A stretch of 64,000 nucleotides of DNA from Desulfatiglandales bacterium (GTDB lineage: Bacteria > Desulfobacterota > DSM-4660 > Desulfatiglandales > B25-G16): NCBI GenBank assembly GCA_035527895.1, contig DATKZQ010000199.1, positions 944 to 64,943 on the forward strand. The letters are read 5' to 3'. Shown piece after piece: positions 1-19,976 of the stretch (within the stretch, counting starts at the first letter, position 1; each line of letters starts with the position of its first letter). The notes under the pieces are model-generated. The model was given only the letters and a program-made list of their open reading frames with translations, was not told the origin of the DNA and did no database searches. Both the position numbers and the translations under genes were made by a program.

Positions 1-367
1 ACAGGTATAACGCGCTGCGAGATAAGCTGCACCCCTGGGCTCGGCAGATGCTTTTCTTACATCTGACGTGCCAATGGGGCGGAGCGAAGCGGAGTCCCGC
101 CTGCAAGACGGGATGTCAGCTTCATTGAGCGGATAGACGGCGCTCCGCGCTGAATAGACGCGAGATGAACAATCTCGCAGCACGATAGGCGGCGGTCCTT
201 TTACCTGATTCTGCCTTCTTCCTTGTTATTCCGCTCAACACTTTTATTCCGCACTAGCTGAGCGGGGCGCTTCGAGCGAAATCTGTTTGAGCATGGATCG
301 CATGGCGCGGCAAAACATCCGGATTCGGCTTCACCACCGGGCGGCGCGGAGCGCCGCCTATCGGATT

Positions 368-428
368 GGGTAACCGGCGGGAATGTAGCGCCAGCGGAAT
401 TACCGTCAGCTTGACCCAAATGTTAGCA
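368..428 (-). mobile_element. attC-like site (weak)
   Basis: GGGTAAC (368-374) ... GTTAGCA (422-428), ending 7 nt before the stop of 436..777. The internal palindrome GGTAACCGGCG / CGCCAGCGGAATTACC is off-centre, so the site is weak. Confidence 0.35.
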
Positions 429-435
429 GCTCTTT

Positions 436-777
436 CTATTTCAACCGATATAAGCCCACGTTCGGATTACCTGGTGCTACCAAATCTGTACCGTCCTTTA
501 GCATTACCTTCAACGAGGATGAGTCGAGGAACACTATTTCGATGTCAGGGAGCATCTCGGCAGCATCTGACACAACGCTGGCAGCGGCATAGTATTTGCC
601 CGACCCTTGCCCTGGCGTTCCGCGTTCTTTGATAAGCTGGTCTCTTATCTGTGATGGCAATTTTTCCAGAATTTGATGCGCGGTTAGATAAGAGCGACCG
701 TATCGAGGATCATTCAGGGTCCTCTTCAATACGGCTTTCACTTCTTCCTTAATATCGGTTGGCATAAGCTTAGGCAT
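436..777 (-). CDS. Hypothetical cassette protein (113 aa)
   Basis: Complete ORF between two attC-like sites, preceded by an AGGAGG-like RBS (CCTCCT at 783-789 on plus). I recognised no motif. Confidence 0.55.
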   Translation of the reverse strand: MPKLMPTDIKEEVKAVLKRTLNDPRYGRSYLTAHQILEKLPSQIRDQLIKERGTPGQGSGKYYAAASVVSDAAEMLPDIEIVFLDSSSLKVMLKDGTDLVAPGNPNVGLYRLK

Positions 778-815
778 GGTATCCTCCTTTGAATCACGCT
801 GCCTTCGTATCGACC

Positions 816-872
816 CTTGCGACGTTCTTCAGCCGCAGCAATAAGCTGTCGGCTGCAAGAGCCATGTTAGGT
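816..872 (-). mobile_element. attC-like site
   Basis: Degenerate left box TTGCGAC and right box GTTAGGT (866-872), 10 nt from the stop of 883..1881. Arms GTTCTTCAGCCGCAGC / GCTGTCGGCTGCAAGAGC pair with unpaired bases. The right half is almost identical to 5695-5724. Confidence 0.55.
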
Positions 873-882
873 TTAAGGGTAT

Positions 883-1881
883 CTATTGACTAATTGACTT
901 CGCTTCAAGATCAAGTATTTCTCGACTGTTTACGTTGAAAAAATGTCCACGCCTGATATTTCTCTGCTCGCCTGAGAAATTTCTGGCTAAAGAAACTCTA
1001 TAGCTTGCCCAATTGAAGAGCGAGACCTGGGAGACAATGGATTTTCTGTCTGCCGCCCAATTTACGGTGACTATATGCCCAAGGCGTCTCCTGCCTTCGA
1101 CTGGTTCATCTCCCAAGATTGGATTATCATCGACGCTCACAAAAGGATAGTCAGCCTTCTTGCCATAACGAATAAAGCTTCTCGATGGGTCAAAGGATTG
1201 ATGTAAAAGAAAATCCCTACCTTCCCAGTAGCCAAGGTAATTAAAAGCTATTTTTGCCACAGTTCGAAAAATGGCACTATCTATCAAAGTATCTACTTTA
1301 CAAAGCCAATCCTCTTTTGGATTTTCTGATGGACCTGCCTCACCCTGATATTCAAATTTAATCGCTTTTTCAGATAGAACCCGACGTGCGGTATCAACAT
1401 CAATACCAAAAGCTCTAATGGCTCTTGGGTGTTTCATATCAAATTCATTTTTATCTAGGTAACTTTTGTGTGGAATCTGATCTAATAGATAGTATTCGTA
1501 CTCTGACGGTTCATTTTTCAAGAAACCGATTTGAGGCACAGGTTTTATCACGACTTTATCCTGTTCTTTAGAATATTCCCGATAAGCATAAGCTCCTTTA
1601 CATTCGCCTTCTGCGATCTTGATTATCATCCTGCTTTGCTTACCAAGGGATTTGAATTCTTTCGGGCTTTTCAACGCAAATTCGAACCTAGATGCCCCCT
1701 CAAGCGTATCTCTGGCCATAACGATTTCAAGGTTGTCTCCGAAGTACTGATTGCAGTCGTCACACACTACATTCGCTAAGGTGAAATTGTTTGTAAACAA
1801 GCCAAAGGATTGAGGCATGACATGTTCAACTTTGGTAAATGCGGAGAGGGGTTTGTCCTCAACACAATAAACGCATTTCAT
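883..1881 (-). CDS. HNH-type zinc-finger nuclease-like protein with an uncharacterised C-terminal domain
   Basis: N-terminus reads CVYC...EHVMPQSFG...CDDCNQYFG, a CxxC...H...CxxC pattern typical of HNH/His-Me finger proteins. It is a single-ORF cassette between attC sites. Confidence 0.6.
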   Translation of the reverse strand: MKCVYCVEDKPLSAFTKVEHVMPQSFGLFTNNFTLANVVCDDCNQYFGDNLEIVMARDTLEGASRFEFALKSPKEFKSLGKQSRMIIKIAEGECKGAYAYREYSKEQDKVVIKPVPQIGFLKNEPSEYEYYLLDQIPHKSYLDKNEFDMKHPRAIRAFGIDVDTARRVLSEKAIKFEYQGEAGPSENPKEDWLCKVDTLIDSAIFRTVAKIAFNYLGYWEGRDFLLHQSFDPSRSFIRYGKKADYPFVSVDDNPILGDEPVEGRRRLGHIVTVNWAADRKSIVSQVSLFNWASYRVSLARNFSGEQRNIRRGHFFNVNSREILDLEAKSISQ

Positions 1882-1913
1882 TCGGATTAACCCACTTAAA
1901 CAAGATTATTGAA

Positions 1914-2002
1914 ACCTAACGCCCAGGGTAACCAGCCGCGCCAGTGACCGTGCCCCTAAGGCCGCCGAGCTCCTCGCGGTCTGGTTGACTCTGTCGTTAG
2001 GC
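1914..2002 (-). mobile_element. attC site (best example)
   Basis: ACCTAAC (1914-1920) ... GTTAGGC (1996-2002). On the minus strand these read GCCTAAC...GTTAGGT, a perfect RYYYAAC/GTTRRRY pair. Arms are CCCAGGGTAACCAGCCGCG / CGCGGTCTGGTTGACTCTG; length 89 bp. Confidence 0.8.
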
Positions 2003-2034
2003 TTAAAATATATTTCATTTCTGCCTGTTACATC

Positions 2035-2550
2035 TCACTGAGGCCTTTTTATATGAAATAAGCTAGGCAATCTAGCCTCGACACGCATTCTTAGATTTTC
2101 ATCCTTTTCTAGGTCGGCGAGAAATTTGTCTACAGCATCGTAAAAATCTCGTATGAATAGATCCACACCCAAAACCACTAGGTCAGGATGTTTCGCTGGA
2201 TCGTAAAAGTGGTTAAGGCAGTTTGGCTTGTATACAATTTTCTTGCATTTGTTTTTTCTACTCAAGTCAGACTCAGCCCCATACGTATGAACGATGCCAC
2301 ATCTTGCGCCATATAAGTCTTCTTCAGCGTATTGATATGGCTGTCCAAAGTCAGTTGTCATATATTTTTCAACCCAATTTTTGAAATCAAGCCTTTCAAC
2401 CTTTTGCTTTCCCTGTGGCATAGACAAGAACGCCATTGCATCCACAGCACAATAAGTCAGAAGTACAGCTCCAGTTGGTGCATTATTTTTCAAACAAACA
2501 TGAATATCATTGCCAATGCAATCAGCTATAACTTCTTTGAATAAATCCAT
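2035..2550 (-). CDS. Hypothetical cassette protein, possible HEPN-like RNase
   Basis: 171 aa. It contains ARCGIVHTYG, an R-x4-H segment in a predicted helical context. Otherwise unrecognised. Confidence 0.5.
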   Translation of the reverse strand: MDLFKEVIADCIGNDIHVCLKNNAPTGAVLLTYCAVDAMAFLSMPQGKQKVERLDFKNWVEKYMTTDFGQPYQYAEEDLYGARCGIVHTYGAESDLSRKNKCKKIVYKPNCLNHFYDPAKHPDLVVLGVDLFIRDFYDAVDKFLADLEKDENLRMRVEARLPSLFHIKRPQ

Positions 2551-2760
2551 TAATCATTTGCCCTCAACAGACAACACATTAGCATTCATGTCACAAAAGG
2601 CAATTAATATGCAGAAGAAATTCTACATATTCAGATGTTTTTGAGTTTCTACAGAATCTCGATGAAGAAACCCTTTCCCCTCAAACAACAAAACCCCACC
2701 TCTCTATGTGAGAAATAGGGGTCTTGATATTCAGTTCATGGCACCCTCGTTTTCTGCGAC

Positions 2761-2819
2761 AACCAACGTCGCAAATCAGCCGGCGCGACTAGTGATCGGC
2801 TGCATTTGCTTTGTTATGT
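2761..2819 (-). mobile_element. attC site
   Basis: AACCAAC ... GTTATGT (2813-2819), ending 1 nt before the stop codon at 2821. Arms GCAAATCAGCCG / CGGCTGCATTTGC carry one extra-helical G. Confidence 0.7.
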
Positions 2820-2820
2820 G

Positions 2821-3528
2821 CTATGTTTCCGATTCGGGATCGAACACATTCCATCCAAGGTATTTGCTTACAGTATCATATGTATAATCGAGTGACCCCA
2901 CTTCTGATAGCCCCTTACGCATGCAGTCAGACATGATGTGATGAAGAAAGAAATCGAGGCCATTTCCATCATGCTCAGAGAATTGAGTTTGTTTGTAAGG
3001 GCTTGACCATGTTTTAGAACCTTTAAGAGAATAAAACCCAACAAATCTCTTTGAATCCTCAAACAGTGATAAATCAGGATTCATAGGATCAACAACCAAG
3101 ACAAAATACCCGGAAGCCATACCGTCGGCTCCAAACATTCCATGTCGTTTAGATTCAACGTCTATAAGGGCATTAAAGTGTTTACTAAGCCGTTTCAAAT
3201 CATATTGGCTCTTGCACTCAACTACTTCAGATACGGACTCGCAGCAAACAATAACTGATGAATCTTCATTTACAGCCAGCCGAGGGAAGGTATTTTTATC
3301 ATAAACAAGGATATCTATTTGAGGGCTTATTTCATTTTGATTATTTGCTATTTGCCCAGTACCAACTGCAAAAGTTGAGGGCATATAATCTGTTAGTGTA
3401 CGACGTATGACATGCTCTATTGACGTCCCTTTGATGACAGAATTGTCTGAACCAACTCTTGCACGATCAGTCTGTGCAACCAAAGAATCACACAATCTTT
3501 TCAGATGTTCAGTCCAGAATCGATCCAT
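2821..3528 (-). CDS. DUF6602-like PD-(D/E)xK (restriction-endonuclease fold) protein
   Basis: The pattern KGTSIEHVIRRTLTDYMP...GQI...SPQIDILVYD...VVECKS resembles the G-x-E...S-x-Q-x-D...E-x-K layout I recall for DUF6602. Confidence 0.55.
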   Translation of the reverse strand: MDRFWTEHLKRLCDSLVAQTDRARVGSDNSVIKGTSIEHVIRRTLTDYMPSTFAVGTGQIANNQNEISPQIDILVYDKNTFPRLAVNEDSSVIVCCESVSEVVECKSQYDLKRLSKHFNALIDVESKRHGMFGADGMASGYFVLVVDPMNPDLSLFEDSKRFVGFYSLKGSKTWSSPYKQTQFSEHDGNGLDFFLHHIMSDCMRKGLSEVGSLDYTYDTVSKYLGWNVFDPESET

Positions 3529-3564
3529 ATCAATTATCTCGTCTAATCTGCTAAAAGTCTTCGC

Positions 3565-3621
3565 ACATAACGCAGAAATAACCCGCCGCTGTAAGCGGTC
3601 GGGTTGAGTGGGTGGTTAGAG
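3565..3621 (-). mobile_element. attC site
   Basis: ACATAAC (3565-3571) ... GTTAGAG (3615-3621). Arms AACCCGCCGC / GCGGTCGGGTT carry one unpaired T. The site lies between the start of 2821..3528 and the stop of 3632..3952. Confidence 0.7.
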
Positions 3622-3631
3622 AAATTACCTT

Positions 3632-3952
3632 TTAATTTGGAGATTTAAAGATGAATCCAATAATCATTATTATTGTTGCAACGATAGCCATAATTGCTGC
3701 TATCCATGCTGCTTTTTTTGCCGAACGCGCATCATCTCGCGCTGATAAAGCAATAAAATTAGCTTCTCGGGCAACTCTGATGCTTTCTGATTCTCGGTCT
3801 TCTTGCCGAGATAAAACATCTTCAGATTTGGAGGACTCCAATTGACGAAGCCATTCTTGGGCGTGTGCCCGTTTAGTCTTGTTGCTCCAAAGATTGGCGT
3901 TGAGATGCTCACGAACTTTTTCTTCCCCAAGCTCTTCACATTTTTGGAACAT
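3632..3952 (-). CDS. Small tail-anchored membrane protein (106 aa)
   Basis: Charged helical N-terminal part followed by a C-terminal hydrophobic helix AAWIAAIMAIVATIIMIIGFIF. Single-ORF cassette. Confidence 0.5.
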   Translation of the reverse strand: MFQKCEELGEEKVREHLNANLWSNKTKRAHAQEWLRQLESSKSEDVLSRQEDRESESIRVAREANFIALSARDDARSAKKAAWIAAIMAIVATIIMIIGFIFKSPN

Positions 3953-3983
3953 CTCATCTTAAGATATAGTCATAATCTTTTAC

Positions 3984-4054
3984 CCCTAACGCTGAGTTGA
4001 GACGCGGGAAACGCGCCAGCGTTTTCCCGTCGATACTCAAACGATTTGTTATAG
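3984..4054 (-). mobile_element. attC site
   Basis: CCCTAAC (3984-3990) ... GTTATAG (4048-4054), directly abutting the stop at 4055. Arms are GAGTTGAGACGCGGGAAACGC / GCGTTTTCCCGTCGATACTCAAAC. Confidence 0.75.
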
Positions 4055-5116
4055 TTAAAGTTTTTCTGGGCAAACCAGCTCGCCATTAACATCCAATATC
4101 TCATGTAAAACCAATCCAAAATAATTAACGAATCTTTTCAAAATAATATCGATTAAATGATCGAATTGGGATTCCTTATCAACGATAAAGGAATACTGTA
4201 AATTATCAGTTTGAACTGGGTATCCGTACAACGCACCTCTCGGATCTTTCTCCCTTGAATAAAGGATGGAATTACGAGTGTTTAAAATAGTGGTTGTCAA
4301 AGTCATATTTTTGAACTGCAAGCATTTAGTCCAAATGGTTTGTAGGGCTTCTATTTGCTTTGTTATTACTTGAGCAAGATGAGTATATTTGATAATTCGA
4401 GACGAACCGATTATATCGGGCTCCTTATTTTTAGCATGCTCTGTTATGTTATTAACAGATCCCTCAAGACAAAATAGAAACTCGCAATGGCCATTTCTAT
4501 ATATTGAGATTTTATGACCGTCACCTTCCTCCAAATTTTTTGTTTTAATGTTTGTTATTCCATTTTCATCAGGTCGAGTATCATATGCATTTAGTTGGGG
4601 GTTCCAGAAGCCATCACCTGGTAGATGAATACTGTTTAGAGTCTCTATTATGGCATCATCCAAGGGATGTATAGAGTCGTTATCAACGCGTAATGGTGTT
4701 AAGCTTGCCACAACCCAAATTTGAGATTTCGAAAAAGAAACCCAGGAATCATAAATCTTTTCTAGATACTGGGAATTATCAATTGGTTTGAATGAAAGAA
4801 CACCGCGTTCAAGTTGTTCAGAAACCCATTTTTCATGTTCTTCTTTAAGTTGATGCAGTTTTGAAGAGGGCCATGAGTCAGGTAATTTGTCTATTTCGGA
4901 ATGGTGGTTTGGACAAAGTAACATCAGGTTGGAATAGTCATCTCTTTTAGATAACAGCAGTGCGTCATTTCCTCTGGGGCCTTCTCTAGTGCGGCTAACA
5001 ATATGGGCAATTTCTCCGATGGTTTCGACCGAACCATCAGGAGATAGTTCAATCTTACAAATCGCGCACCTGTTAGCAGAACGTCCCCACAATAATTTAA
5101 TATCTTTAATGCGCAT
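4055..5116 (-). CDS. HNH endonuclease-domain protein with a large uncharacterised C-terminal domain
   Basis: CAICK...GEIAHIVSRTREGPRG...YSNLMLLCPNHHSEIDK is a clear HNH motif. The stop abuts the attC at 3984-4054. Confidence 0.75.
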   Translation of the reverse strand: MRIKDIKLLWGRSANRCAICKIELSPDGSVETIGEIAHIVSRTREGPRGNDALLLSKRDDYSNLMLLCPNHHSEIDKLPDSWPSSKLHQLKEEHEKWVSEQLERGVLSFKPIDNSQYLEKIYDSWVSFSKSQIWVVASLTPLRVDNDSIHPLDDAIIETLNSIHLPGDGFWNPQLNAYDTRPDENGITNIKTKNLEEGDGHKISIYRNGHCEFLFCLEGSVNNITEHAKNKEPDIIGSSRIIKYTHLAQVITKQIEALQTIWTKCLQFKNMTLTTTILNTRNSILYSREKDPRGALYGYPVQTDNLQYSFIVDKESQFDHLIDIILKRFVNYFGLVLHEILDVNGELVCPEKL

Positions 5117-5132
5117 GTGGAATAATTCCTTA

Positions 5133-5192
5133 ATATAACGAAAAACTCAGCCGCGCTGTTTCTTTGGCGTCGGCTGAAGTGGATGGTTAGGA
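5133..5192 (-). mobile_element. attC site
   Basis: ATATAAC (5133-5139) ... GTTAGGA (5186-5192). The TAA stop of 5187..5663 lies inside the GTTAGGA box. Arms are CTCAGCCGCGC / GCGTCGGCTGAAG. Confidence 0.7.
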
Positions 5193-5663
5193 AAAAAGAG
5201 ATTGAAGAACCTGTATCGCCATGTGGAGCCACTTCCTTGGATCACTTGAAAAGCCACTCTCTTCAAGCGTGCGAAGCTCCTGAAAACTCGGCTTCGCTTT
5301 TGCCTTTACCTCCGCCCAAGCCTTTGCAAACGACGGTTTAGATAGGTTGGATTTTATGCCATCACTCCAACTGCGCCAGGTTGCGAAGCTCACCCGACCG
5401 TTCATTCTCAGAAACACCTGCTCATTAGACAAGTCTATGTACTGGAATAGATGGGGAAAAGCCTTCTTAAAATCGTCTTCACTTAACTCCGTCCCGAGGT
5501 GTGCTTCAACTGGAATCGCACGCGTCAACTCTCTGTACTCTCTGGAAAGGTCATCTTCAAAATCCGTTCTGGCTTGCTGGGTATTCTTGTGGACCTGCCA
5601 AGCGGCGATGAGTACCGCTATGGCTGTACCTATTGACCCAATCGCTGACCAATCGAACTTCAT
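5187..5663 (-). CDS. N-terminally anchored membrane protein (158 aa)
   Basis: N-terminal TM helix AIGSIGTAIAVLIAAW followed by a helical soluble part. GGGAGG RBS upstream; the stop lies inside the attC box. Confidence 0.5.
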   Translation of the reverse strand: MKFDWSAIGSIGTAIAVLIAAWQVHKNTQQARTDFEDDLSREYRELTRAIPVEAHLGTELSEDDFKKAFPHLFQYIDLSNEQVFLRMNGRVSFATWRSWSDGIKSNLSKPSFAKAWAEVKAKAKPSFQELRTLEESGFSSDPRKWLHMAIQVLQSLFS

Positions 5664-5679
5664 TGCCTCCCTCGCTAAA

Positions 5680-5724
5680 GCCTAATGCAGCGATTAGCTG
5701 TCGGCTGCAAGAGCCGTGTTAGCA
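5680..5724 (-). mobile_element. attC-like site (short, degenerate)
   Basis: GCCTAAT ... GTTAGCA (5718-5724). It is only about 45 bp long. It shares AGCTGTCGGCTGCAAGAGCC-N-TGTTAG with the site at 816-872. The next ORF start (5663) is 16 nt away. Confidence 0.45.
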
Positions 5725-5747
5725 TGTCGATCTGCTCCACTCTTAGG

Positions 5748-7166
5748 CTATCCACAATTTGCTCTCACCTCCATGGCAAGGCGTGCTGCTGCGACTGTTG
5801 CCGGTACGTAATCGCCTCCGGCACCTCTGGCAACCTCCTTAACAACCTGAAGCTCTTTCGCCTCGCTTTCAAACTCCCAGTTCAGATGCACGCGAGAATT
5901 ATTGCGTTCCCACCAGACTTCAGAAGGTGTGAACATAAGAAGGATATCTATCCTCGGCCGTAAGAGATCAACAGCGTAACCCAGGTATTGCAGTGCGCCT
6001 TCCAGGTCCTCCAAACGCCGAATTAGCGAGTCATAGTCCGTTTGAGGGTCAGGACCGCGGAACAGTTCTTCATCGAGTTCCTGTAAGAATATATCCACTA
6101 CGGACGGCTCTTTTCTCAAGATCGGCTCCAAGTAGCCCCAAGGAGCACACGTGTAATGGTTCGGATAGATCGAGACATTCCCGGAACGCCGCTGAACGAC
6201 CACCCTGTCCTCCACATTACTATTATCCTTGGGAGGAAAGGTGATTGCCAAAACCGTAACCAATGGTCGCTTGCAATTCAAGAAGTTAAGCCTGTCGAAT
6301 TCTACCTCACCGTTTGAGAGCCAATCCTCTAGCAGATCCAGGTACGCCATCTCACAACAGCCAAAACAGTCCCTAAAAGGCCCTTCGCTGACCTCAATAC
6401 GGGGCGTTTGGTCGTCTGATGGTGTGAGTAAATCAGCCAGATTGGTCACGAAGAAAGTCGGTGCAAAACTTGCGGTGCGGAATCGCGCGATATAATCACC
6501 ACTTGCAATAGCTCTCACATCATCGAGCTTCTGCAGATTCTCTGTCGAGTGTTTAATAATGCCATCATCGAACTCTTTACATTTCTCTTTTTCTCCGATC
6601 GCTTTCAAATCGAGGATAAGCGTACTCCTTGCTGGTACCACGAAAAGAGGCCATTTATCATACGGTATGTGCCGCTTGTCCAAGGTGCCCCGGGCAGACT
6701 GCGTCAAATCATGGAAGAAGCCAGGAACATCAAGGTCATTTCTTGCTGATGGACCGTCCCACACTAGAGACGCTATATGAGCCGGGAATGGGAAAACCTT
6801 TCCGCTGTCCGCTGTGCTCCAATGAGACCATTCAACCCTTTCGGAGTGAGAACGTACGACTACCTCGGCGATAACCGCCTCCTGATCGAATCTACAACGA
6901 AGTTCGGTTGCCAAATTATTCAGTTTATTAATCTCGGAGACACACCCCTTTGGATCAGACCATTTTTCACCTGACAAGTCCATGTGCACCTCTATAATCA
7001 CAGAATCTTCGGGCTTGCCTTTGTAATACCCCTGGCAGTTGATGACCGTGTACTCGTCGATTCCCATTTGATTGGGGGCAAGTTGAATATCCTTAAGATT
7101 GATATCTCGGCCACTCATGGCCTTCGCCCCGACGAAGAAACGCACCGAAATCAAAATCTTACTCAT
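5748..7166 (-). CDS. Hypothetical protein (472 aa), no recognisable family
   Basis: Long uninterrupted ORF filling one cassette (attC 5680-5724 downstream, 7219-7346 upstream). I recognised no catalytic motif with confidence. Confidence 0.6.
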   Translation of the reverse strand: MSKILISVRFFVGAKAMSGRDINLKDIQLAPNQMGIDEYTVINCQGYYKGKPEDSVIIEVHMDLSGEKWSDPKGCVSEINKLNNLATELRCRFDQEAVIAEVVVRSHSERVEWSHWSTADSGKVFPFPAHIASLVWDGPSARNDLDVPGFFHDLTQSARGTLDKRHIPYDKWPLFVVPARSTLILDLKAIGEKEKCKEFDDGIIKHSTENLQKLDDVRAIASGDYIARFRTASFAPTFFVTNLADLLTPSDDQTPRIEVSEGPFRDCFGCCEMAYLDLLEDWLSNGEVEFDRLNFLNCKRPLVTVLAITFPPKDNSNVEDRVVVQRRSGNVSIYPNHYTCAPWGYLEPILRKEPSVVDIFLQELDEELFRGPDPQTDYDSLIRRLEDLEGALQYLGYAVDLLRPRIDILLMFTPSEVWWERNNSRVHLNWEFESEAKELQVVKEVARGAGGDYVPATVAAARLAMEVRANCG

Positions 7167-7218
7167 GCGGATGCTCCTTCTTTGCTTGGCCTCACTATTT
7201 GGGAGTTCCTATACGTCT

Positions 7219-7346
7219 GGCTAACGCCCACCATCACCAGTGGGCAGGGTTAATAGAGCGCTGTAAAATTGCAATCAAACAGAGTATTCGATAAGAGCTA
7301 TTAACCGCCGCGACCCTGCCCATCTGCGTGAATGGTGTTGTTATGC
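7219..7346 (-). mobile_element. attC site (long, 128 bp)
   Basis: GGCTAAC (7219-7225) ... GTTATGC (7340-7346). The stop of 7341..7886 lies inside the GTTATGC box. Long arms CACCATCACCAGTGGGCAGGGTTAATAGAGC / GCTATTAACCGCCGCGACCCTGCCCATCTGCGTGAATGGTG pair with bulges. Confidence 0.75.
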
Positions 7347-7886
7347 ATTGTCAAATAGTAGGGTTCCTGCCACTGCGAGTTCACACAACTTTGTTTGTAT
7401 TAATTCTACTAGCTGAATTGACAAAGCGAGGCTTTCAATTTCATGCCGCGTTATGACAATAAACTGGCGGCCTTCTGCTAATGCCGCGTTAATGACATCA
7501 TGTGCCGCTGTTCTATCAGCAGGATTCCCTGTTATGCCATTAGCAGCAACTAATATTCCAAAAGGCTGGGCTCTTCTTCGTAATTTTGAATCAAACCAAC
7601 CGACTTCCTCACTCCCTAAAGGTCGTGACCAATTCTTACATTCAGCCAGAATTATGTTTTGAAGAAAATACAAGCCATTGTGATGGCGTCTATTCCAGAA
7701 AGCAACATCAATTTCTTCGGATAAAAACTGATTTAGTGTGTTTCTTTTTGTAACTGTGATTCCAGGCACCTTCCCGAAAATGTAACAAATAAGATCTTCG
7801 AGAGCTCTGCCTTTTTCAGTAGTTGTTTGGGCATTGTCACCTGCAGCAAGAAATTGTTGAATTCGCTGTTGGGATATGAGAGCCAT
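7341..7886 (-). CDS. Mrr-like restriction endonuclease-domain protein (PD-(D/E)xK)
   Basis: KGRALEDLICYIFGKVPG...EEIDVAFWN...ILAECKNW matches the Mrr_cat-type layout G-x-x-x-E...D...E-x-K. Its start overlaps the stop of the upstream ORF (TAATG at 7884-7888). Confidence 0.7.
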   Translation of the reverse strand: MALISQQRIQQFLAAGDNAQTTTEKGRALEDLICYIFGKVPGITVTKRNTLNQFLSEEIDVAFWNRRHHNGLYFLQNIILAECKNWSRPLGSEEVGWFDSKLRRRAQPFGILVAANGITGNPADRTAAHDVINAALAEGRQFIVITRHEIESLALSIQLVELIQTKLCELAVAGTLLFDNA

Positions 7887-8779
7887 TATATCTCTCCCCC
7901 ATGTGCAATTATGTTCCTGCGTGTCCTTATTATGCCAGAAAAACTTTTTTCTTGGAGTTGTTCAATGAACTCTTCTAGTTGGAAAAAAATGATATTGAAC
8001 TGTTGTGCTGCAGTTTGAGCTTCAAATGATGGCAGTCCTTCCAAATATAGTACCAAGGCAGATCTTGAATTACTTTTATTCATGTAGCGGAGTAATTGAT
8101 CTGTAACCTTTTTAACCTGTGCAGCACTCTTAATGCTCCTTTTAATTTCAATTAAAATTGGGTTGCCAAATATTGAACTAAGATCGTCAGACCAAATAGC
8201 AAAATCGGCTCCAAGATCTGGTCTGTTTGATTGCTTGATTATTGAGATACCGCTCTCTTTCAGTATGTCACCCACAAAATTTTCGAGTTCGTACCCAGCG
8301 ATTTTAGGATCTAAGGATTTTAGCCTGTTTCTTAACTCAATTACTCCGAATCCGGCAGGTTTACCAACATGAGGAGGTTTCTTTAACTGTCGCTTTTTTG
8401 TTCTTTTGATCGGTGCGGCAAGCAACTGATCAACTGTAAATCCAAGAGCTTCGATGTTGTCTGCATCAATTTTTAGATAAAGAAAGCCTGCTAAATCGGA
8501 TGGGATTTTAAATTTCGGGGGGGCCAAGATAATTATCTGTTTTTTTTGGGCTACGGCCAGCCCTAATTCAAAGAAAATATTTCCATTTGGCAGATCGTCG
8601 TCGAAGACCGCGATAAAGAGATCTGCTTGTGAAATTAGTTTTGATATTTTTTCACTAATGCTTTCACCAGAAAATGGAATTTCGGATGGGTGAATATACT
8701 CCAGGCCTTTCTCGCTGAGTATCCTCTTTATTTTTAAAAGGTTGACTCCTGCTGGTGCTGAAATAAAGCAAGAAAGCAT
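7886..8779 (-). CDS. Fusion protein: N-terminal nucleoside 2-deoxyribosyltransferase-like/TIR-like Rossmannoid domain plus C-terminal Mrr-like PD-(D/E)xK nuclease domain
   Basis: The N-terminal part CFISAPAG...QADLFIAVFDDDLPNGNIFFELGLAVAQKKQIIIL resembles the NDT/TIR-like core. The C-terminal part YELENFVGDILKESG...GADFAIW...ILIEIKRS is an Mrr-type D...E-x-K motif. Confidence 0.55.
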   Translation of the reverse strand: MLSCFISAPAGVNLLKIKRILSEKGLEYIHPSEIPFSGESISEKISKLISQADLFIAVFDDDLPNGNIFFELGLAVAQKKQIIILAPPKFKIPSDLAGFLYLKIDADNIEALGFTVDQLLAAPIKRTKKRQLKKPPHVGKPAGFGVIELRNRLKSLDPKIAGYELENFVGDILKESGISIIKQSNRPDLGADFAIWSDDLSSIFGNPILIEIKRSIKSAAQVKKVTDQLLRYMNKSNSRSALVLYLEGLPSFEAQTAAQQFNIIFFQLEEFIEQLQEKSFSGIIRTRRNIIAHGGEI

Positions 8780-8807
8780 TTTAGTACTCCTTTATTATTT
8801 TGCGATG

Positions 8808-9503
8808 TTATGCATTCTCTTTTTTATCTGACTGATACTTCAATAAAGCATGCCTTAGATTTCTTACTTCTGCTACAAGGTAAGAGGTCTGGGTTGCAGT
8901 GGGGTCGTACTTTACGCCCCAAAAACCAAGGCTAAAATGTTCGAACTTACCTAAACCAGCTTCCAATCGGAAACTGGATACCCTCTTTAAACTCACGCCT
9001 GGTTCGGCCATATCAACTACAATATCACCAACTTGATATTGCCCTACGAGGAATTCGACCTCAAAAGATTGGCCTTTATTGATATGGGCTATTTCCAGGG
9101 TGGCAACGTTGTCCATTTTTTCTAAACTCAATTTTTTCCTATAAACGCCTAAATCTCCTATGTATCGGCCAACATATACCTTTGCATCATCGCCAAATCG
9201 AAAATACAATGTTATATTTTGAAGTTCAACGTTACCTGTATTACCAACCTTAATTCTTATCGTGCTAAGATCGGTTACTTGATTCGGACCCATAAAAACC
9301 TTTACAGGGACGCCAAAACCGGTCTCTAATTCCTCTTGGGTAGCATGAGATAATAAATTGCTTTCATTAACCAAAGACCAAATAATTTTCTTTTTCTTTT
9401 TGCTTATACGCTGAGTCAGAATTGTGAGCAAAACACCAAGCAAAAAAGTAACTCCCCAGCCTACAATTGTAATCCAGTCAGAGCTTTTTATATCAAAAGC
9501 CAT
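8808..9503 (-). CDS. Membrane-anchored protein with a beta-rich soluble domain (231 aa)
   Basis: One N-terminal TM helix (WITIVGWGVTFLLGVLLTILT) followed by KKKKK, which suggests a cytoplasmic C-terminal domain. GAGGG RBS. First gene of the three-gene unit. Confidence 0.55.
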   Translation of the reverse strand: MAFDIKSSDWITIVGWGVTFLLGVLLTILTQRISKKKKKIIWSLVNESNLLSHATQEELETGFGVPVKVFMGPNQVTDLSTIRIKVGNTGNVELQNITLYFRFGDDAKVYVGRYIGDLGVYRKKLSLEKMDNVATLEIAHINKGQSFEVEFLVGQYQVGDIVVDMAEPGVSLKRVSSFRLEAGLGKFEHFSLGFWGVKYDPTATQTSYLVAEVRNLRHALLKYQSDKKENA

Positions 9504-9975
9504 CTATACCCTCGTCATTTATGTGTTTGCATAACATTTACATATAAGGCAATTTTGCCTGATCCCAATATATCGGGATTGAACAAACAAACAGGCAAAT
9601 TTGCTTACTTTCAATATTCAACATAGTATTGTCTTTCTGATCGTAAAAAAACGATAAAATTGAAAATCTTACGGGCGCCCCGCTTTATGGCAAGAATAAC
9701 AATTTAAGCCACAAATTGTTTTGAAAATTGCGAGTCAAAAGCACACCTGGAGCCCTGTCAAAAAATCAAAAGAGTCAAACGGAGACTTGACCCTTTATCA
9801 AGCGAGAAGTAACGGGTGCGGAAAGGGAGGCGAAAACGAGGCCGAGCTGATGCGAGCGTCTGGGCCAAGCAGAAAAGGAGAACTTTTTTGGCAGGAGAGG
9901 TGTTTTTTCCCTTGACTCGCCCTTTAATGGTCGACCCCCATTTTAGATTTTTTAGGATTTTTTCAATTCTGCTAT

Positions 9976-10757: not shown

Positions 10758-11134
10758 GGGACGTTGGTTCCAAAACGATTTAAAGATATTTCTCTACCTC
10801 TGGCAACTCATCAGAAACGGCTAATCGATTAGCAGCAGAAGTATTTATACCAAGAAAGCATGCGACATCCGCACAAGAATAACCCATTTTTTTACCGCTG
10901 TCTGACTCATAAGAGCCCAAGGGTAAACACTGAGGGCATCTGCCCCACAAAGAGCCCTCAAACGCTCAAGAGAATCCTCCCGAGCTTTGCTGTTGCTAAA
11001 TATCTTTACTCCACCAATGCCCAGACCCATCACATGATGTAAGGCACCGGGTGCATCAAGTCTTGGCTGTCTGGACATACAAAAAGCCTCACCCCTTTAT
11101 GCCATTTATCAAGTCGTTTTGGAACCTACGTCCC
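10758..11134. repeat. 21-nt inverted repeat pair flanking the transposase remnant
   Basis: GGGACGTTGGTTCCAAAACGA (10758-10778) is the reverse complement of TCGTTTTGGAACCTACGTCCC (11114-11134) with 1 mismatch. Confidence 0.8.
10845..11078 (-). pseudogene. Truncated IS200/RAYT-type (Y1) transposase fragment
   Basis: PRLDAPGALHHVMGLGIGGVKIFSNSKAREDSLERL...VYPWALMSQ matches the N-terminal third of REP-associated/IS200-like tyrosine transposases. The frame then decays and only 77 aa remain. Confidence 0.65.
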
Positions 11135-11161: not shown

Positions 11162-12640
11162 TTATTGTCCATTGATCGATTCCATGATTTGCTTAAAACT
11201 CTCGACACCGGCTTCAAGGTTTTCGATGATCTCTTCAGCCAGCACATCCGGATCGGGGAGGTTATCCAGGTCGGCCAGGCTTTCGTCTCTGATCCAAAAA
11301 ATGTCCAGGCTGGTTTTGTCACGGGCCATGATCTCGTCATAGGTGAATTTTCGCCATCTCGCGTTGGGGTTGTCTTCTGTCCAGGTTTCTTGGCGTTTGT
11401 GCCGGTTTTCGGGATTGTAGCAGGCAATGAAATCCTTCAGGTCGTCATAAGTCATCTGGTTCTTCTTTTTGGTAAAATGGACATTTGTTCTAAAGTCATA
11501 AAACCAAACCTCTTTTGTCCACGGGTCCTTGCTGGCAGGCTTGTTTTCGAAAAAGATCACGTTGGCCTTGACCCCCTGGGCGTAAAATATGCCGGTGGGA
11601 AGCCTGAGAATGGTGTGCAGGTCGGTATTTTGAAGGAGTTTTTGTCGAACCGTTTCACCGGCTCCCCCTTCAAAGAGCACATTGTCCGGAACCACCACGG
11701 CCGCCTGGCCGGTGGTTTTGAGCATGGTGCGAACGTGCTGTACAAAATTGAGCTGCTTGTTGGAAGTGGTGGCCCAGAAGTCCTGCCGGTTGTATCGAAG
11801 ATCCTCCTTTTCCTGTTTGCCCTCTCCATTGGTGATGGTGATACTGCTTTTTTTACCGAATGGCGGATTGGTCAGGACATAGTCGTATCGGTCACCGGTA
11901 TCGGCAATCAGGGAATCATTGGGTGAAATGGTGGATTCACCGGTAATCTCCCCGATATTATGCAGAAACATGTTCATCAATGCCAGGCGGCGGGCATTGG
12001 CTACGATCTCGTTGCCGAAAAAGGTTTGATTCTTCAAAAAGATTTTCTGTCCCTTGTCCAGGTTGTAATTGTTTATTAAAAAATCATACGCCGCCAGAAA
12101 AAAACCACCTGTGCCGCAGGCAGGGTCGGCAATGGCTTTAGAAGGTTCGGGGCAGACACATTCGACCATGGCCCTGATCAGCGATCTTGGGGTAAAATAT
12201 TGTCCGGCGCCGCTTTTGACGTCTTCGGCATTTTTTTCAAGCAGGCCCTCGTAGATATCCCCCTTGACGTCCGCTCCCATCATGACCCAGTTTTCCGCAT
12301 CGATCATGTGAATAATCTTATAAAGCTTGGCCGGGTCCTGGATCTGGTTCTGAGATTTGACAAAAATCTGGCCGATCATGCCTTTCTGTTGGCCCAGTGC
12401 CCTGAGCAGCTTGATGTAATGGGATTCGAGTTCCGCCCCTTTTAGGGTTTTCAAGCTGCCCTAATTGTATTCAGCCGGGATGCCGACATCCTTTTTGTAA
12501 ATCCTGCTGTATTCATCGGCCATCTTGAGAAACAGCAAATAGGTAAGCTGCTCTAAATAATCGCCGTAACTGACGCCGTCATCCCGCAGAGTGTGACAGA
12601 AACTCCAGACTTTTGAAACGATGTTTGCGGTATTGTTCAT
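11162..12640 (-). pseudogene. hsdM: Type I R-M methyltransferase subunit HsdM, interrupted by one in-frame TAG (12461-12463)
   Basis: Carries the NPPFG motif (LTNPPFGKKS) and the AdoMet motif DPACGTGGF. The 59-codon N-terminal part (MNNTANIVSKVWSFCHTLRDDGVSYGDYLEQLTYLLFLKMADEY...) lies in the same frame upstream of the TAG. Its ATG overlaps the upstream stop (ATGA). Confidence 0.85.
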
Positions 12641-14085
12641 TTCGTTATTTTCTCTTTTGTTGAATAATATTTTTGTCTTGAGCTTGTCGGTTTCTCAGGA
12701 ATTGTCGGCTTCAAAATACCCTGTTTCAATAAAGGCTGGAGAATTGTTGCTCGAAAATGCTCTCGATGCTTCAGTCCCAGAAAGCCCATTATTTCAGAAG
12801 TTGATTTTGGGCTTCTACAAAACTCAATAATTTTTTCGCTCTTCTCGACCTGCTCGGCAACTTGCTCGGCAACTTGCTCGGCAACTTGCTCGGTGACTTC
12901 CGGGGTAACTTGCGGGCTAAGGGGGACGATGCATTTAAAAATATCTTCCTCTATCAGTTCAGGAGTCTTGCCATCGGAATAATGCCGGCAGTATTTAAAA
13001 AGATTTCTCACCCCGGAACCAAGCTCATCCGCGCGTCCGATTTCCTTGAAAAAACTGGCCATAACCGGGTTTTTGGGAAAGGGAGAAAAATTTGCGGGAT
13101 CGATCAATCCGTGTCCGTGGGGCTTGTTGCTGTTTTCAGCAAACAACCGGTTGGTTTCAATAATAAATTTTGCCGGGTAGGGATTTAGAAATTCACGGTG
13201 GATCAGCATGTTTGCAGCCACTTCCCTGAATATATGGTCTCTCAGGCTGATCCGCTGGTCTTTTTCCAGGAAGAATTTGTCCGGCAGATGTTTGGCCACA
13301 AATGCCATCAGGCGGTCATAACTCTCAATCAGGTTGGTCCGGATGTCATCGCGATCGTCGTACCTGTCTATGTTCTCCCGCCGAAGCAGAGCATCGGTGC
13401 GATGATGGGGCAGCACGGATAAAATGGCATTATCGTCTCCTAAAAGAAGGATTGCAGCTAGTGTAAAACCTTCCTTACCGCTTTGATAGTCCCTTTGAAA
13501 AAGCTGGGCGCTTTTGAGCAACTCGATATCCGACATACTGGCCCATGGATGCCCGGGTCTTTGATTGACAGCCAGCTTCCTTGCTTTGGCGATCAGGTCC
13601 GGGCGCAGGTTCTTCAAAGACACATAAGGATATGTACGATTTTCCGAATAGCTGGTCTGCTTTCGAATGTAAAGCTCTGTGACCAGATTGGTGTTGCTGG
13701 TGATATCAAGGTCTCCATCTTCATTGCGGTCATATATTTTACCATTGCAGCGGTGAACCTGGGAGCTTTCAGGGACAAAGAGGCGGATGATCCGTTTTCC
13801 TTGAATGGCCCAATTCTCGGGCGTCAGATAAAACGGCGGATTCAGCTTCTGAGGATTATTCAGGGCGGTTACAAGCTCGTTTTTGACCTGATCCACTGCT
13901 TCGGGGTCAATGCCCGTTATCTTTCCACTGTCACTCACACCAAGGAATAAATCTCCTCCATTGCGGTTTAAAAACGCGCAAATGCTTTCGAAAACATCTT
14001 TGCCCAGCTTATTCCGGCATTCTTTAAATTCGATGGAGATGCCTTCTCCTTTACGGATCTGATTTTTTATTCCGGCTTTGTTCAT
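12637..14085 (-). CDS. AlbA_2/Schlafen-like DNA-binding domain protein with RecG-like HATPase_c_4 and a C-terminal wHTH, embedded in the R-M operon
   Basis: N-terminus GEGISIEFKE...ICAFLNRNGGDLFLGV is the AlbA_2 signature. The central part is ANMLIHREF...GSGVRNLF. Both ends overlap neighbouring genes by ATGA. Confidence 0.65.
   Translation of the reverse strand: MNKAGIKNQIRKGEGISIEFKECRNKLGKDVFESICAFLNRNGGDLFLGVSDSGKITGIDPEAVDQVKNELVTALNNPQKLNPPFYLTPENWAIQGKRIIRLFVPESSQVHRCNGKIYDRNEDGDLDITSNTNLVTELYIRKQTSYSENRTYPYVSLKNLRPDLIAKARKLAVNQRPGHPWASMSDIELLKSAQLFQRDYQSGKEGFTLAAILLLGDDNAILSVLPHHRTDALLRRENIDRYDDRDDIRTNLIESYDRLMAFVAKHLPDKFFLEKDQRISLRDHIFREVAANMLIHREFLNPYPAKFIIETNRLFAENSNKPHGHGLIDPANFSPFPKNPVMASFFKEIGRADELGSGVRNLFKYCRHYSDGKTPELIEEDIFKCIVPLSPQVTPEVTEQVAEQVAEQVAEQVEKSEKIIEFCRSPKSTSEIMGFLGLKHREHFRATILQPLLKQGILKPTIPEKPTSSRQKYYSTKEKITK
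12850..12921 (-). repeat. In-frame 12-nt tandem repeat (6 units, 4 near-perfect)
   Basis: CTGCTCGGCAAC, TTGCTCGGCAAC x2, TTGCTCGGTGAC, then two decayed units. It encodes VTEQ(VAEQ)x3V inside 12637..14085. Confidence 0.85.
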
Positions 14086-18450: not shown

Positions 18451-18584
18451 TCATAACGCGGAGGTGAGGGGCCGGGCGGCATTTTGAGATAAAGCTTTCC
18501 GGCCCTTACTCATGCCCCTAAAAGAAGTACATGCGTTGAAACGACACCTGAATAGCCCGGTCCCTCTCTACCGCCTTGTTGTGC
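18451..18584 (-). mobile_element. attC site (134 bp) immediately upstream of hsdR
   Basis: TCATAAC (18451-18457) ... GTTGTGC (18578-18584). Arms are GCGGAGGTGAGGGGCCGGG / CCCGGTCCCTCTCTACCGC. The right box is 9 nt from the stop of 18594..19019, and the hsdR ATG lies 20 nt beyond the left box. Confidence 0.65.
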
Positions 18585-18593
18585 AGATCCACA

Positions 18594-19019
18594 TTATTGA
18601 TTCATCGTTCTTAGTAGATCGAGCCACACTTCTTGCTTCTGCTTTGACATGTTGCCCTTGATCTTTGTCAGTCCGAAGACGATCACTTGGTCGGCCTCGA
18701 TTGCAAGGTTTTTCTTATCCCGATATACATTGTCAATCTCATCCAACAATGCCTGTAAATTTCCCTTGCCAACAAAGTCCCTATACTTCGACTTACCAAG
18801 ATCGGCAATCTCTTGATGGTTGATACAGTCGATGTCTCGGAGTCCAACCAATATGCCTCGATATGCACCTTTAAGATATCCGGCCAAATAAAATACCTTT
18901 GAAGGCTTGTCTAAAGCTAACCATTTCGTACCATCAATGAGGAATGCTTCTTGCGCATATGCCGCATTGGTTACGAGGATTATTGACAACAGGACGAATA
19001 CGAAGGATAGACGTCTCAT
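18594..19019 (-). CDS. Secreted hypothetical protein (141 aa)
   Basis: Signal-peptide-like N-terminus MRRLSFVFVLLSIILVTNAAYAQ. Single ORF between two attC sites. Confidence 0.55.
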   Translation of the reverse strand: MRRLSFVFVLLSIILVTNAAYAQEAFLIDGTKWLALDKPSKVFYLAGYLKGAYRGILVGLRDIDCINHQEIADLGKSKYRDFVGKGNLQALLDEIDNVYRDKKNLAIEADQVIVFGLTKIKGNMSKQKQEVWLDLLRTMNQ

Positions 19020-19038
19020 AATTTGCTCCTATTCGTGT

Positions 19039-19092
19039 GCACAACGCAAAACTCACCAGCGGTTTACCGTCTGGTGGAGTGAATGGTTATAA
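19039..19092 (-). mobile_element. attC site
   Basis: GCACAAC (19039-19045) ... GTTATAA (19086-19092). Arms are CTCACCAGCGG / CCGTCTGGTGGAG. The ATG of 18594..19019 lies 20 nt beyond the left box. Confidence 0.65.
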
Positions 19093-19202
19093 GGAGGTGT
19101 ATTTTGTTTAAGATCGTCATTGATCGAAAACTCAACGAAGACCAAGTCAACGAGGTTGTTAAAAAAATCTCAAGAGATGTCGAAAAGAAAGTCCTTTACT
19201 GC

Positions 19203-19472: not shown

Positions 19473-19976
19473 GGGTTCTCCTTATAACATTAATACTATA
19501 CTGCCGAAAAGGCGTAATTTTTTACGATTCCAAATCCAGAAGGCCGAATAAAGCACATAAATTCAATATCTTATTTTGCGGCTTTGTATTATAGGCGCAA
19601 ATGAATACGCCTTACAGTCCTTTTTATCAGCGGTGGTTGAGAGCAGGATTTCAGGTGTGAGCTGAGTATGCGATAGAGAGTGCGATGGTTCGTGCATCGC
19701 GTGATAAGGAGAAATGGAATCGCGGTTTCGCATGAGCTGTCATGCTGAAGTAGGATTCTGTTTTAAGTCAGCAGATTTCTACCATATTGCTGCGCTATAA
19801 GCAAGAAGGAAAGACCCGGCGGCTCTGCCGCCGGCAAGTTGGAAGTTCGAAAAGGCGAAATGAAGCTCCCTGCAGTAAACTGCAGGGTATCAAGCGGAAT
19901 TGCATGGAAATCCGATCTTTAACTTGGCTTCCTGACACCGCGCCTGCAACCAATCAGTCTAAGGTACAAATCTCCT

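Follow-up and report, generated by a model that had tools for sequence, protein, structure and literature searches.

The window analysed here (64,000 nucleotides of a Desulfatiglandales bacterium; assembly GCA_035527895.1, contig DATKZQ010000199.1, positions 944 to 64,943) carries at its left end an array of gene cassettes separated by attC recombination sites, with no integron integrase gene (intI) beside it. Arrays of this kind are known as CALINs, that is, groups of clustered attC sites that have no integron integrase. By the published definition the window holds two CALINs, a large one (array A) and a small one (array B), and the larger is the decayed remnant of a complete chromosomal integron; positions 1-9706 very probably correspond to an integron whose intI was deleted. 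Array A had been called CALIN-like in a first-pass annotation made from the letters of this DNA and its open reading frames (ORFs), and that assignment is supported here and refined to a decayed integron, with two arrays and three degenerate attC sites.

Array A has a minimum of 11-12 gene cassettes, which lie on the minus strand and terminate in an attC site each (sites and junctions are numbered s0 to s14 by coordinate), and array B consists of two cassettes at 18451-19488. The first-pass annotation had delimited a single array at 368-9535. Its right end stands, since array A stops at the junction 9529-9535, but array A runs past the left edge of the window, where at least one further cassette (262 aa) was seen in locus L001 (loci from other assemblies are given L numbers), and the second array had been missed. 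All genes called from the left edge to 9503 lie on the minus strand, and the cassette ORFs are AT-rich (GC 0.37-0.49 vs. 0.505 for 22-64 kb). The gaps between these co-oriented ORFs are imperfect palindromes of 45-134 bp with a GC of 0.48-0.66, far beyond chance, and on both counts the first-pass annotation had been right. Each attC site comes after a minus-strand ORF or a gene-less cassette. On the plus strand the palindromes mostly start with nnnTAAC and end with GTTAnnn, as had been described for all of them, but the R' boxes of s1 (GCCTATC, 356), s2 (CCCTTGC, 814) and s8 (GCCTAAT, 5680) deviate from this pattern. The GTT box, which had been said to abut or contain the stop codon of the preceding ORF, contains it at 5186-5192, 7340-7346 and 8807-8813 and abuts it at 2813-2819 and 4048-4054, but is 7-32 nt distant at the other sites.

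The attC sites are 54-134 bp long (45 bp in the truncated s8), which we count as agreeing with the criterion of 57-141 bp located 3' of a promoterless ORF. As for the spacing in the CALIN definition (at least two attC on one strand, with under 4 kb between them), the largest gap in array A is about 2 kb, and the two sites of array B have 455 bp between them. The genomic context is chromosomal, and the genes around the arrays have housekeeping and catabolic roles (secDF, yajC, tgt, queA, tripartite ATP-independent periplasmic (TRAP) transporters and molybdoenzymes). Sedentary chromosomal integrons are recognised by a chromosomal location, more than 19 attC sites or presence in all genomes of a species, and homogeneous attC; here the context is chromosomal, at least 12 sites were counted in an array that is cut by the contig end, and the attC are heterogeneous. 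To the left of the window, at 12686-12824 of L001, all assemblies that reach this point break about 80-140 nt past the 262-aa cassette gene. No attC was detected in that interval, and the break suggests either a repeat or a strain-variable continuation of the array.

The palindromes were scored with a covariance model, R1, built solely from the bottom strands of 19 attC sites of class 1 plasmid integrons, with no window sequence included. The class 1 integrons were located in plasmid records via the IntI1 protein, 16 annotated arrays were read and 19 distinct attC sites were cut out; the model pairs the R box, the L box and a 6-bp stem and leaves two extrahelical columns unpaired. With filters off, R1 gave 13 matches in the whole window at E≤10, of which 11 are attC sites on the plus strand (nine within 5-7346 and two within 18451-19092). 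Of the two others, one was s3 read on its opposite strand (11 vs. 25.9 bits) and the second had an E of 5. Ten window sites, all on one strand, scored E<1, the default attC cut-off of IntegronFinder (PMC4889954), and they include 8 of the 10 full palindromes in 1-7346; the covariance-model check that the first-pass annotation had proposed therefore favours the array, with a model derived independently of it. As a control, R1 at E≤1 matched only true attC sites, non-seed sites included, on eight class 1 plasmid loci. Rfam, which has no attC family, gave no matches in the window. The other check proposed, for a genome-wide family of repetitive extragenic palindromes (REPs), gave neither an R1 match nor a BLAST copy of the palindromes in the remaining ~42 kb of the window, so they are not dispersed; BLAST within the window also found them mutually unrelated, except that s2 resembles s8.

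In attC sites, the R' box (5'-RYYYAAC) of the recombinogenic bottom strand pairs with R'' (GTTRRRY-3'), followed by an unpaired central spacer of 5-6 nt and the L box (PMC5027507). Only the L'' arm carries extrahelical bases; they begin at position 16, usually with a G, and end with a T at 23 or 24, and the stretch in between forms a 6-bp stem (PMC5027507). The site s3 matches this published geometry exactly (ACCTAAC-GCCCAG-GGT-AACCAG ... [T]CTGGTT[G]ACT-CTGTC-GTTAGGC), and the window sites have the R box, a spacer of 5-6 nt, a 3-bp L box and extrahelical bases on the R''/L'' arm. Bulges are G16/T23 in s1, s3, s5 and s13, C16/T23 in s0 and s4 (two seed sites, blaVIM-2 and cmlA1, likewise have C16), A16/T23 in s7, C17/T24 in s2 and T16/T20/T24 in s12; s6 and s9 have three bulges, the last being a T. 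The R''-L''-loop-L'-R' architecture with unpaired bases that had been claimed was thus recovered in the sites read, with one-sided bulges at 16 and 23/24. Because all bulges are on the high-coordinate arm, the plus strand is the bottom strand and the cassettes are read on the minus strand, in agreement with ORF orientation. Ten of the 12 full sites have the form nnnnAAC...GTTnnnn, s0/s1 carry a compensated TATC/GATA variant, and the R' boxes of s2 and s8 are mutated; departures from the strict R/Y pattern are frequent, and the class 1 seed sites show them too. In an alignment of the window hits, which is biased towards structure since it was fitted to R1, the L box and stem are 96% paired with compensatory changes in 6/9 pairs, and pairing falls to 26-42% when the partner columns are slid as a control.

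The crossover takes place between A and C of R', so the outer six R' bases of a site belong to the neighbouring cassette and each R'' should be complementary to the R' of the next upstream site, not to its own. Scored over the four variable positions of each R box, the reverse complement of R'' agreed with the next site's R' at 38/48 positions, with five perfect 6-mers, vs. 23/48 and zero perfect 6-mers when R'' was set against R' within one site. In 200,000 permutations the value of 38 was never attained (p<5e-6). This shifted complementarity is the signature of cassettes cut at AA/C, is not predicted by REP or terminator models, and explains the weak pairing of the outer three R-box pairs within sites. 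The shifted register also compensates the unusual pair GATAG(A/G)C / GCCTATC that surrounds the gene-less cassette (139-361), the R'' variant GATAG(A/G)C being complementary to the R' of s1. Around these boxes, GATAG(A/G)CGGCG(C/G)TCC is present in three copies, two direct and one inverted, as R boxes extended by 10 nt.

No integrase is encoded up to 64 kb, as the first-pass annotation had stated. The best match of tblastn with IntI1 over the 64 kb had an E of 0.5, the same search with a 45%-identical environmental IntI (from L093) gave no match, and Pfam found no tyrosine recombinase among all large ORFs of the window. The annotation had further expected intI at higher coordinates than the cassettes, and directly to the right of the first cassette there is indeed an attI-like region followed by an intI start codon (9536-9706). 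Over 9532-9659, identity amounts to 83% with L136 and L135 and to 89% with L179, loci in which the corresponding region abuts intI fragments. With four loci aligned, the letters differ ahead of TAAC; conservation sets in at the base after it and continues for about 150 nt, as far as the ATG of the intI fragments, and this conservation after TAAC is common to the window, L053, L136, L135 and L179. The fragment of L136 begins MSRKILDD..., and the best NCBIfam match of the fragments is TIGR02249, integron integrase. The start remnant of the window, with 7 codons left, aligns with ATG TCA AGG AAG... of the L136, L135 and L179 fragments. Conservation from the crossover to the intI ATG marks 9536-9685 as a probable attI and intI-upstream platform whose intI, beginning at 9686, appears to have been deleted after its first few codons; the putative attI function is assigned by position and by homology to the regions adjoining intI fragments.

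The intI relatives found in other loci are short as well. In 34 protein clusters (P0039-P0072; L136 5542-5751; L179 8001-8219) only the N-terminal SAM-like domain PF13495 of an integron-type integrase is present, and no full-length member of the L136/L179 intI clade was found in a collection of 5.8 billion proteins. The possibility that these 70-77 aa ORFs form a functional "mini-integrase" family was considered and judged unlikely, because L136 and L179, which are orthologous loci with the same right flank, have different nonsense codons, their homology extends past the stops, and their codon differences are 14 non-synonymous to 8 synonymous and affect the conserved YCDW motif too. Most likely these short ORFs represent a lineage-wide decay into intI pseudogenes, as in Xanthomonas, where lineage-specific inactivation of intI is described (bioRxiv 10.1101/2025.06.18.660453, citing Gillings et al.).

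Comparison with other loci showed where cassettes have moved. Exact-protein look-ups recovered the same locus from several assemblies with 100% identity across as much as 11.9 kb, which rules out a chimeric window. In addition, close relatives of single cassette proteins were found in other arrays: the 472-aa cassette (window 7225-5687, from R' of s9 to R' of s8) in L057 with 91.7% identity and other neighbours, the 353-aa cassette (5140-3984, R' of s7 to R' of s6) in a different array, L058, with 93% identity, and the 231-aa cassette (9536-8807) inside yet another array, L176, with 87% identity. In these three loci homology ends either no more than 1-2 nt from the R' crossover or at the R box itself. 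L178, from an NCBI metagenome-assembled genome (MAG), is 98.6% identical to window 8964-7222 and then, within the R' of s9, changes to another cassette. As homology breaks at the canonical crossover, cassettes were exchanged there, once between very close relatives (L178).

The same loci reveal the erosion of single sites. The attC of the 472-aa cassette is intact in L057 (32.2 bits), and s8 of the window is without its 5' arm. A complete palindrome follows the 231-aa cassette in L176, and only the R'' box (8807-8813) is left in the window and in L178; this s10 deletion has fused the 231-aa cassette to the TIR-Mrr cassette. Furthermore, the AAC of s2 is lost (CCCTTGC). Three of about 14 boundaries (s2, s8 and s10) are dead, as expected without integrase upkeep.

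A 24-base core of the s2/s8 type of attC (CTCTTGCAGCCGACAGCTnATnGCTG), referred to as s2 type, was found exactly, once per contig, in 117 metagenome contigs of the Joint Genome Institute (JGI) from many sediment metagenomes. The 80 contigs fetched (L059-L138) gave 113 R1 matches, strand-consistent within each locus, and the other attC sites in these arrays differ. Some of these contigs encode an integron integrase: full-length in L093 (426 bits on TIGR02249 vs. a cut-off of 265), partial in L116, whose sample series also yielded one copy of the window locus, and as fragments in further contigs. The presence of one attC type in more than 100 sediment contigs, with and without integrases, points to a common cassette pool. 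The platform sequences of L093 and L116 differ from that of the window. At 1513-1572 of L116 there is an attC that reaches 68.7 bits with the class 1-derived R1, the level of clinical aadA-type sites; this integron is from sediment or soil, with an IntI that shares just 45% identity with IntI1. In L057, the stretch upstream of the 472-aa cassette (700-860) has no attC but three direct repeats of GTGTTACATAG, possibly the attI of another integron type.

The established integron mechanism fits the window sequence. An integron integrase would have cut the folded bottom strand (the plus strand of the window) between A and C of the R' box, and circular cassettes would then have been inserted successively at the attI site, which would survive at 9536-9685. 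Homology suggests that the divergent intI starting at 9686 was later deleted after its first codons. This would leave an array unable to move cassettes by itself, with s2 (R' box), s8 (5' arm) and s10 (all but R'') eroded, and the remaining intact sites could still be excisable by an integrase given in trans.

A split integron would also account for the missing gene. A rearrangement with its breakpoint just inside the 5' end of intI would have moved the integrase elsewhere in the genome, from where it would serve the array in trans. Rearrangement is a recognised origin of CALINs, half of which lie in replicons encoding IntI (PMC4889954). Window, L053 and L055 each have another right flank beyond the platform, the window is one cassette swap away from L178 at the identity given above, and an intact IntI with the same attC type was found in the same sample series (L116). 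However, the three eroded attC sites fit disuse, all relatives of this intI type are truncated, no intI fragment is present in 64 kb, and L116 and L093 have a different platform sequence. We therefore consider a split integron unlikely and prefer the deletion of intI in place.

Less probable still is that the arrays never stood beside an integrase, their cassettes having entered secondary genomic sites (attG, consensus GWT) in trans and built up at these places. Insertion by IntI outside att sites is on record, and small CALINs have been suggested to arise in this way (bioRxiv 10.1101/2022.09.11.507474). For array A this account is contradicted, since right of the junction there is sequence homologous to what abuts intI fragments in four other loci, and the start codon is kept. 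Array B lies 8.9 kb from array A, beyond the type I restriction-modification (R-M) island. R' of s13 (GCACAAC) and R'' of s12 are exactly complementary, and the array begins with the R' box 19482-19488, at a first junction where no recognisable attI or intI trace was found; insertion at a secondary site is thus possible for array B. The flank 19489-19976 was considered as a second copy of the attI platform and rejected, with zero similarity.

That the palindromes are REP-type repeats or intrinsic terminators between small genes, unrelated to integrons, can be practically dismissed: GC-rich hairpins do lie after stop codons, and the 77-aa ORF at 10845-11078 (MSRQPRLDAPGALHHVMG...) resembles the N-terminus of an IS200/RAYT-type Y1 transposase (Pfam at E≤0.01 gave no match), but the palindromes lack the dispersal and the mutual similarity of such repeats outside s2 and s8, most are without T-tracts after them, their bulges are one-sided at fixed positions, and neither the shifted R''/R' complementarity nor the crossover-bounded homology is explained.

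Several points weigh against a decayed integron with a deleted intI. R1 is self-built with a shortened calibration, it is not the model of IntegronFinder, and its E-values are rough. Three sites fall short of the E<1 standard (s2, with E 2, s8 and s10, of which s2 and s8 are visibly eroded), and s1 and s9 pass R1 just weakly. At the platform, similarity past the ATG spans just ~20 nt, all 34 relatives of the L136-type intI are truncated (51-102 aa), no intact integron with the attI of the window was seen, and an intact intI may exist elsewhere in the genome, beyond the 64-kb window. Finally, seven cassette proteins matched nothing even in relaxed Pfam, NCBIfam and PDB searches, no convincing cassette promoter (Pc) emerged when promoters were scanned for by consensus, and the candidate defence role described below comes from domain matches. 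The features of both arrays and of their neighbourhood are collected in Table 1.

Table 1. Features of array A, array B and neighbouring genes (window coordinates; bits and E-values of attC sites are those of R1; a slash marks the crossover; TM, transmembrane).
Feature	Position	Strand	Evidence and remarks
attC s0	5..138	+	R' GTATAAC, R'' GATAGAC; 18.9 bits, E 0.024; C16/T23, 6-bp stem; follows gene-less cassette
One or two gene-less cassettes	139..361	-	17-nt inverted repeat 132-148 vs. 345-361, third copy 188-200; no gene called in any assembly
attC s1	356..428	+	R' GCCTATC, R'' GTTAGCA; 15.6 bits, E 0.17; stem just 4/6 paired
Cassette ORF, 113 aa	436..777	-	No family match
attC s2	814..872	+	Eroded R' CCCTTGC, R'' GTTAGGT; 11.3 bits, E 2; 6-bp stem; 3' arm of the widespread s2 type
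Cassette ORF, 332 aa, N-terminal HNH_5 nuclease domain	883..1881	-	PF14279 E 6.6e-9; weak PtuB-like PADLOC matches
attC s3	1914..2002	+	Textbook site; 25.9 bits on + vs. 11 on -
Cassette ORF, 171 aa, orphan	2035..2550	-	Leader of 210 nt (2551-2760)
attC s4	2761..2819	+	30.1 bits, E 3.8e-5; C16/T23
Cassette ORF, 235 aa, DUF6602 / PD-(D/E)xK, NucC-like nuclease domain	2821..3528	-	PF20247 E 3e-19; PADLOC PD_DExK 4e-24, NucC 5e-13
attC s5	3565..3621	+	22.7 bits; G16/T23
Cassette ORF, 106 aa, C-terminal hydrophobic stretch	3632..3952	-	ORF call
attC s6	3984..4054	+	27.1 bits; 92.5% identical copy in L102
Cassette ORF, 353 aa, N-terminal HNH_2 nuclease	4055..5116	-	Pfam PF13391; PADLOC PDC-M68A 8e-28, SAVED_HNH 3.5e-26, N-terminal ~100 aa only; C-terminal part uncharacterised
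attC s7	5133..5192	+	26.4 bits; A16/T23; R'' includes stop of 158-aa ORF
Cassette ORF, 158 aa, orphan, N-terminal TM segment	5187..5663	-	ORF call
attC s8, truncated	5680..5724	+	5' arm deleted; R' GCCTAAT; 6.5 bits, fails R1
Cassette ORF, 472 aa, orphan	5748..7166	-	No Pfam, NCBIfam or PDB match
attC s9, long, three bulged bases	7219..7346	+	15.3 bits, E 0.19, filters off
Two-gene cassette, 297 aa TIR (CAP12/Pycsar-type) + Mrr_cat fusion, overlapping 181 aa Mrr-like	7341..8779	-	297 aa: PF10137 1e-8, PF04471 7e-8; 181 aa: PF04471 below cut-off; PADLOC PDC-S02
s10, R'' box only (GTTATGC, includes stop codon)	8807..8813	+	Remainder of attC deleted
First cassette ORF, 231 aa, orphan, N-terminal TM segment	8808..9503	-	ORF call
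s11, cassette/attI junction GCATAA/C	9529..9535	+	R' box, no hairpin beyond
attI-like platform, putative former intI upstream region	9536..9685	.	Two GGCAA(A/T)TTTGC repeats
Putative intI start remnant ATG GCA AGA ATA ACA ATT TAA	9686..9706	+	Aligns with L136, L135, L179 intI fragments
Type I R-M operon	11162-18430	-	hsdR 15677-18430, hsdS 14082-15677, hsdM 11162-12454
Schlafen/AlbA_2 + Fic-like_C gene, 482 aa	12637-14085		Between hsdS and hsdM
attC s12, array B	18451..18584	+	20.4 bits, E 0.01; T16/T20/T24
Cassette ORF, 141 aa, signal-peptide-like N-terminus	18594..19019	-	ORF call
attC s13	19039..19092	+	28.9 bits, E 7.7e-5; G16/T23
Cassette ORF, 89 aa	19203..19472	-	ORF call
s14, array B first junction TTATAA/C	19482..19488	+	Exact complement of s13 R''; no hairpin beyond
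AbiEii toxin, 288 aa, + AbiEi-like antitoxin, 216 aa	19977-21500		AbiEii Pfam E 1e-32; AbiEi weak; directly right of array B

Among the cassettes in which a domain can be recognised, most code for nucleases (two HNH, one PD-(D/E)xK and one TIR-Mrr with its Mrr-like partner), and the HNH_2 domain of the 353-aa protein resembles the HNH heads of SAVED-HNH and cyclic-oligonucleotide-based antiphage signalling system (CBASS) effectors. The cassette proteins of 113, 171, 106, 158, 472, 231, 141, 89 and 262 aa had no significant match in domain searches. Judged by their domains, the nuclease cassettes probably act as small anti-phage or abortive-infection genes. With a type I R-M system, a Schlafen/AlbA gene and AbiE alongside, the region 1-21.5 kb reads as a defence island, and integron cassettes are documented carriers of defence genes (bioRxiv 10.1101/2024.07.02.601719; PMC12614218). 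Regarding expression, transcription of the array presumably starts at a promoter of the attI region or at promoters inside the cassettes; the only candidate Pc, at 9693-9666, matches the consensus weakly and is not shared by L053. The leader of the 171-aa cassette is unusually long, with a terminator-like hairpin at 2720-2694 (minus strand) directly after attC s4, and could mean an internal promoter or a small RNA.

It is conceivable, although rather doubtful, that an integrase elsewhere in the genome or community still reshuffles the array in trans, which would make it a live reservoir of compact single-gene anti-phage nucleases, several of them new defence systems. The L093/L116-type enzyme would be the candidate for this activity because its integrons share the s2-type attC. 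If this were the case, the TIR-Mrr and Mrr pair, the fusion of HNH with an uncharacterised C-terminal domain and the 472-aa orphan would be candidate new defence systems.

To the right of the attI platform the flank differs in three assemblies, which may reflect strain differences, rearrangements or a second locus. In the window the platform is followed by two small ORFs, by what may be a fragment of a transposase and by the type I R-M operon, and in L055 (NCBI MAG, 1-1175) an HpcH/HpaI aldolase gene is found. L053 (1-3770) carries an NYN gene at the expected position and orientation of intI and then four cassette-like genes with attC matches, one of 32.4 bits. The window and L053 are 91% identical from about 9620 to 9790, with a 32-nt indel, and 99.97% identical in the array itself. 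Exactly where the homology to L053 stops, there is a terminator-like hairpin on the minus strand (9769-9796), with a 12-bp stem and then a T-run.

The assemblies divide hsdM of the type I R-M operon into two ORFs (HsdM_N, 59 aa, and 430 aa), and the gene may be frameshifted. Although hsdR starts 20 nt past the R' box of attC s12, the operon as a giant cassette was rejected, as there is no matching R'' (GTTATGA) and no attC between 9536 and 11200. A 32-nt stretch with the palindrome CCCTGCAG...CTGCAGGG at 19860-19892 recurs with 87.5% identity at 42300-42331, 22 kb away, and may be a small dispersed repeat unrelated to attC.

The current understanding of integrons is unchanged by this locus, which offers no new mechanism; its value lies in the delimited cassettes and in the example of decay. 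It is a well-bounded case of chromosomal integron decay in an uncultured bacterium of sediment or soil, with intI apparently reduced to its start codon, the putative attI kept and attC sites eroding singly, and close relatives still differ by whole cassettes. Roughly a dozen cassettes with exact boundaries, most of them orphans or nuclease fusions, lend themselves to direct cloning for phage-defence screens.

Compared with the CALINs described by Cury et al. (2016; PMC4889954), those of the window are alike in having at least two attC on one strand less than 4 kb apart, no intI nearby and a chromosomal location, and in that their cassettes are mostly without database homologues and include no antibiotic-resistance genes. 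However, array A has at least 10 detectable sites, and only 6.6% of CALINs have more than 10; it also keeps an attI-like region and an intI start, and intI pseudogenes are near only 5% of CALINs (PMC4889954). With the Vibrio cholerae repeats (VCRs) the window shares the bulges of s12 at 16, 20 and 24, as in VCR2 (PMC5027507), and long sites (128-134 bp) with branched terminal structures. Unlike the near-identical VCRs, its attC sites are heterogeneous, only s2 and s8 being alike, and in contrast to the V. cholerae superintegron the array is much shorter and has no integrase. The bacteriophage resistance integron cassettes (BRiCs) of mobile integrons (bioRxiv 10.1101/2024.07.02.601719) and the chromosomal defence "biobanks" (PMC12614218) resemble the array in their small, mostly single-gene nuclease or TIR cassettes, and the array lies in a region with type I R-M and AbiE. 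The window differs in that its matches are to effector-type domains only, with no complete named PADLOC system, and its cassettes are known from sequence alone. Finally, the Xanthomonas integrons (bioRxiv 10.1101/2025.06.18.660453) belong to another organism than the window, whose relatives come from sediment or soil metagenomes, and have another platform sequence; in the window the deletion takes almost the whole intI, and the right flank of the platform varies between assemblies. Nevertheless, both have an ancestral chromosomal platform and lost intI throughout a lineage by stops or deletions, and in both the arrays were frozen after the loss of intI and yet differ between lineages.

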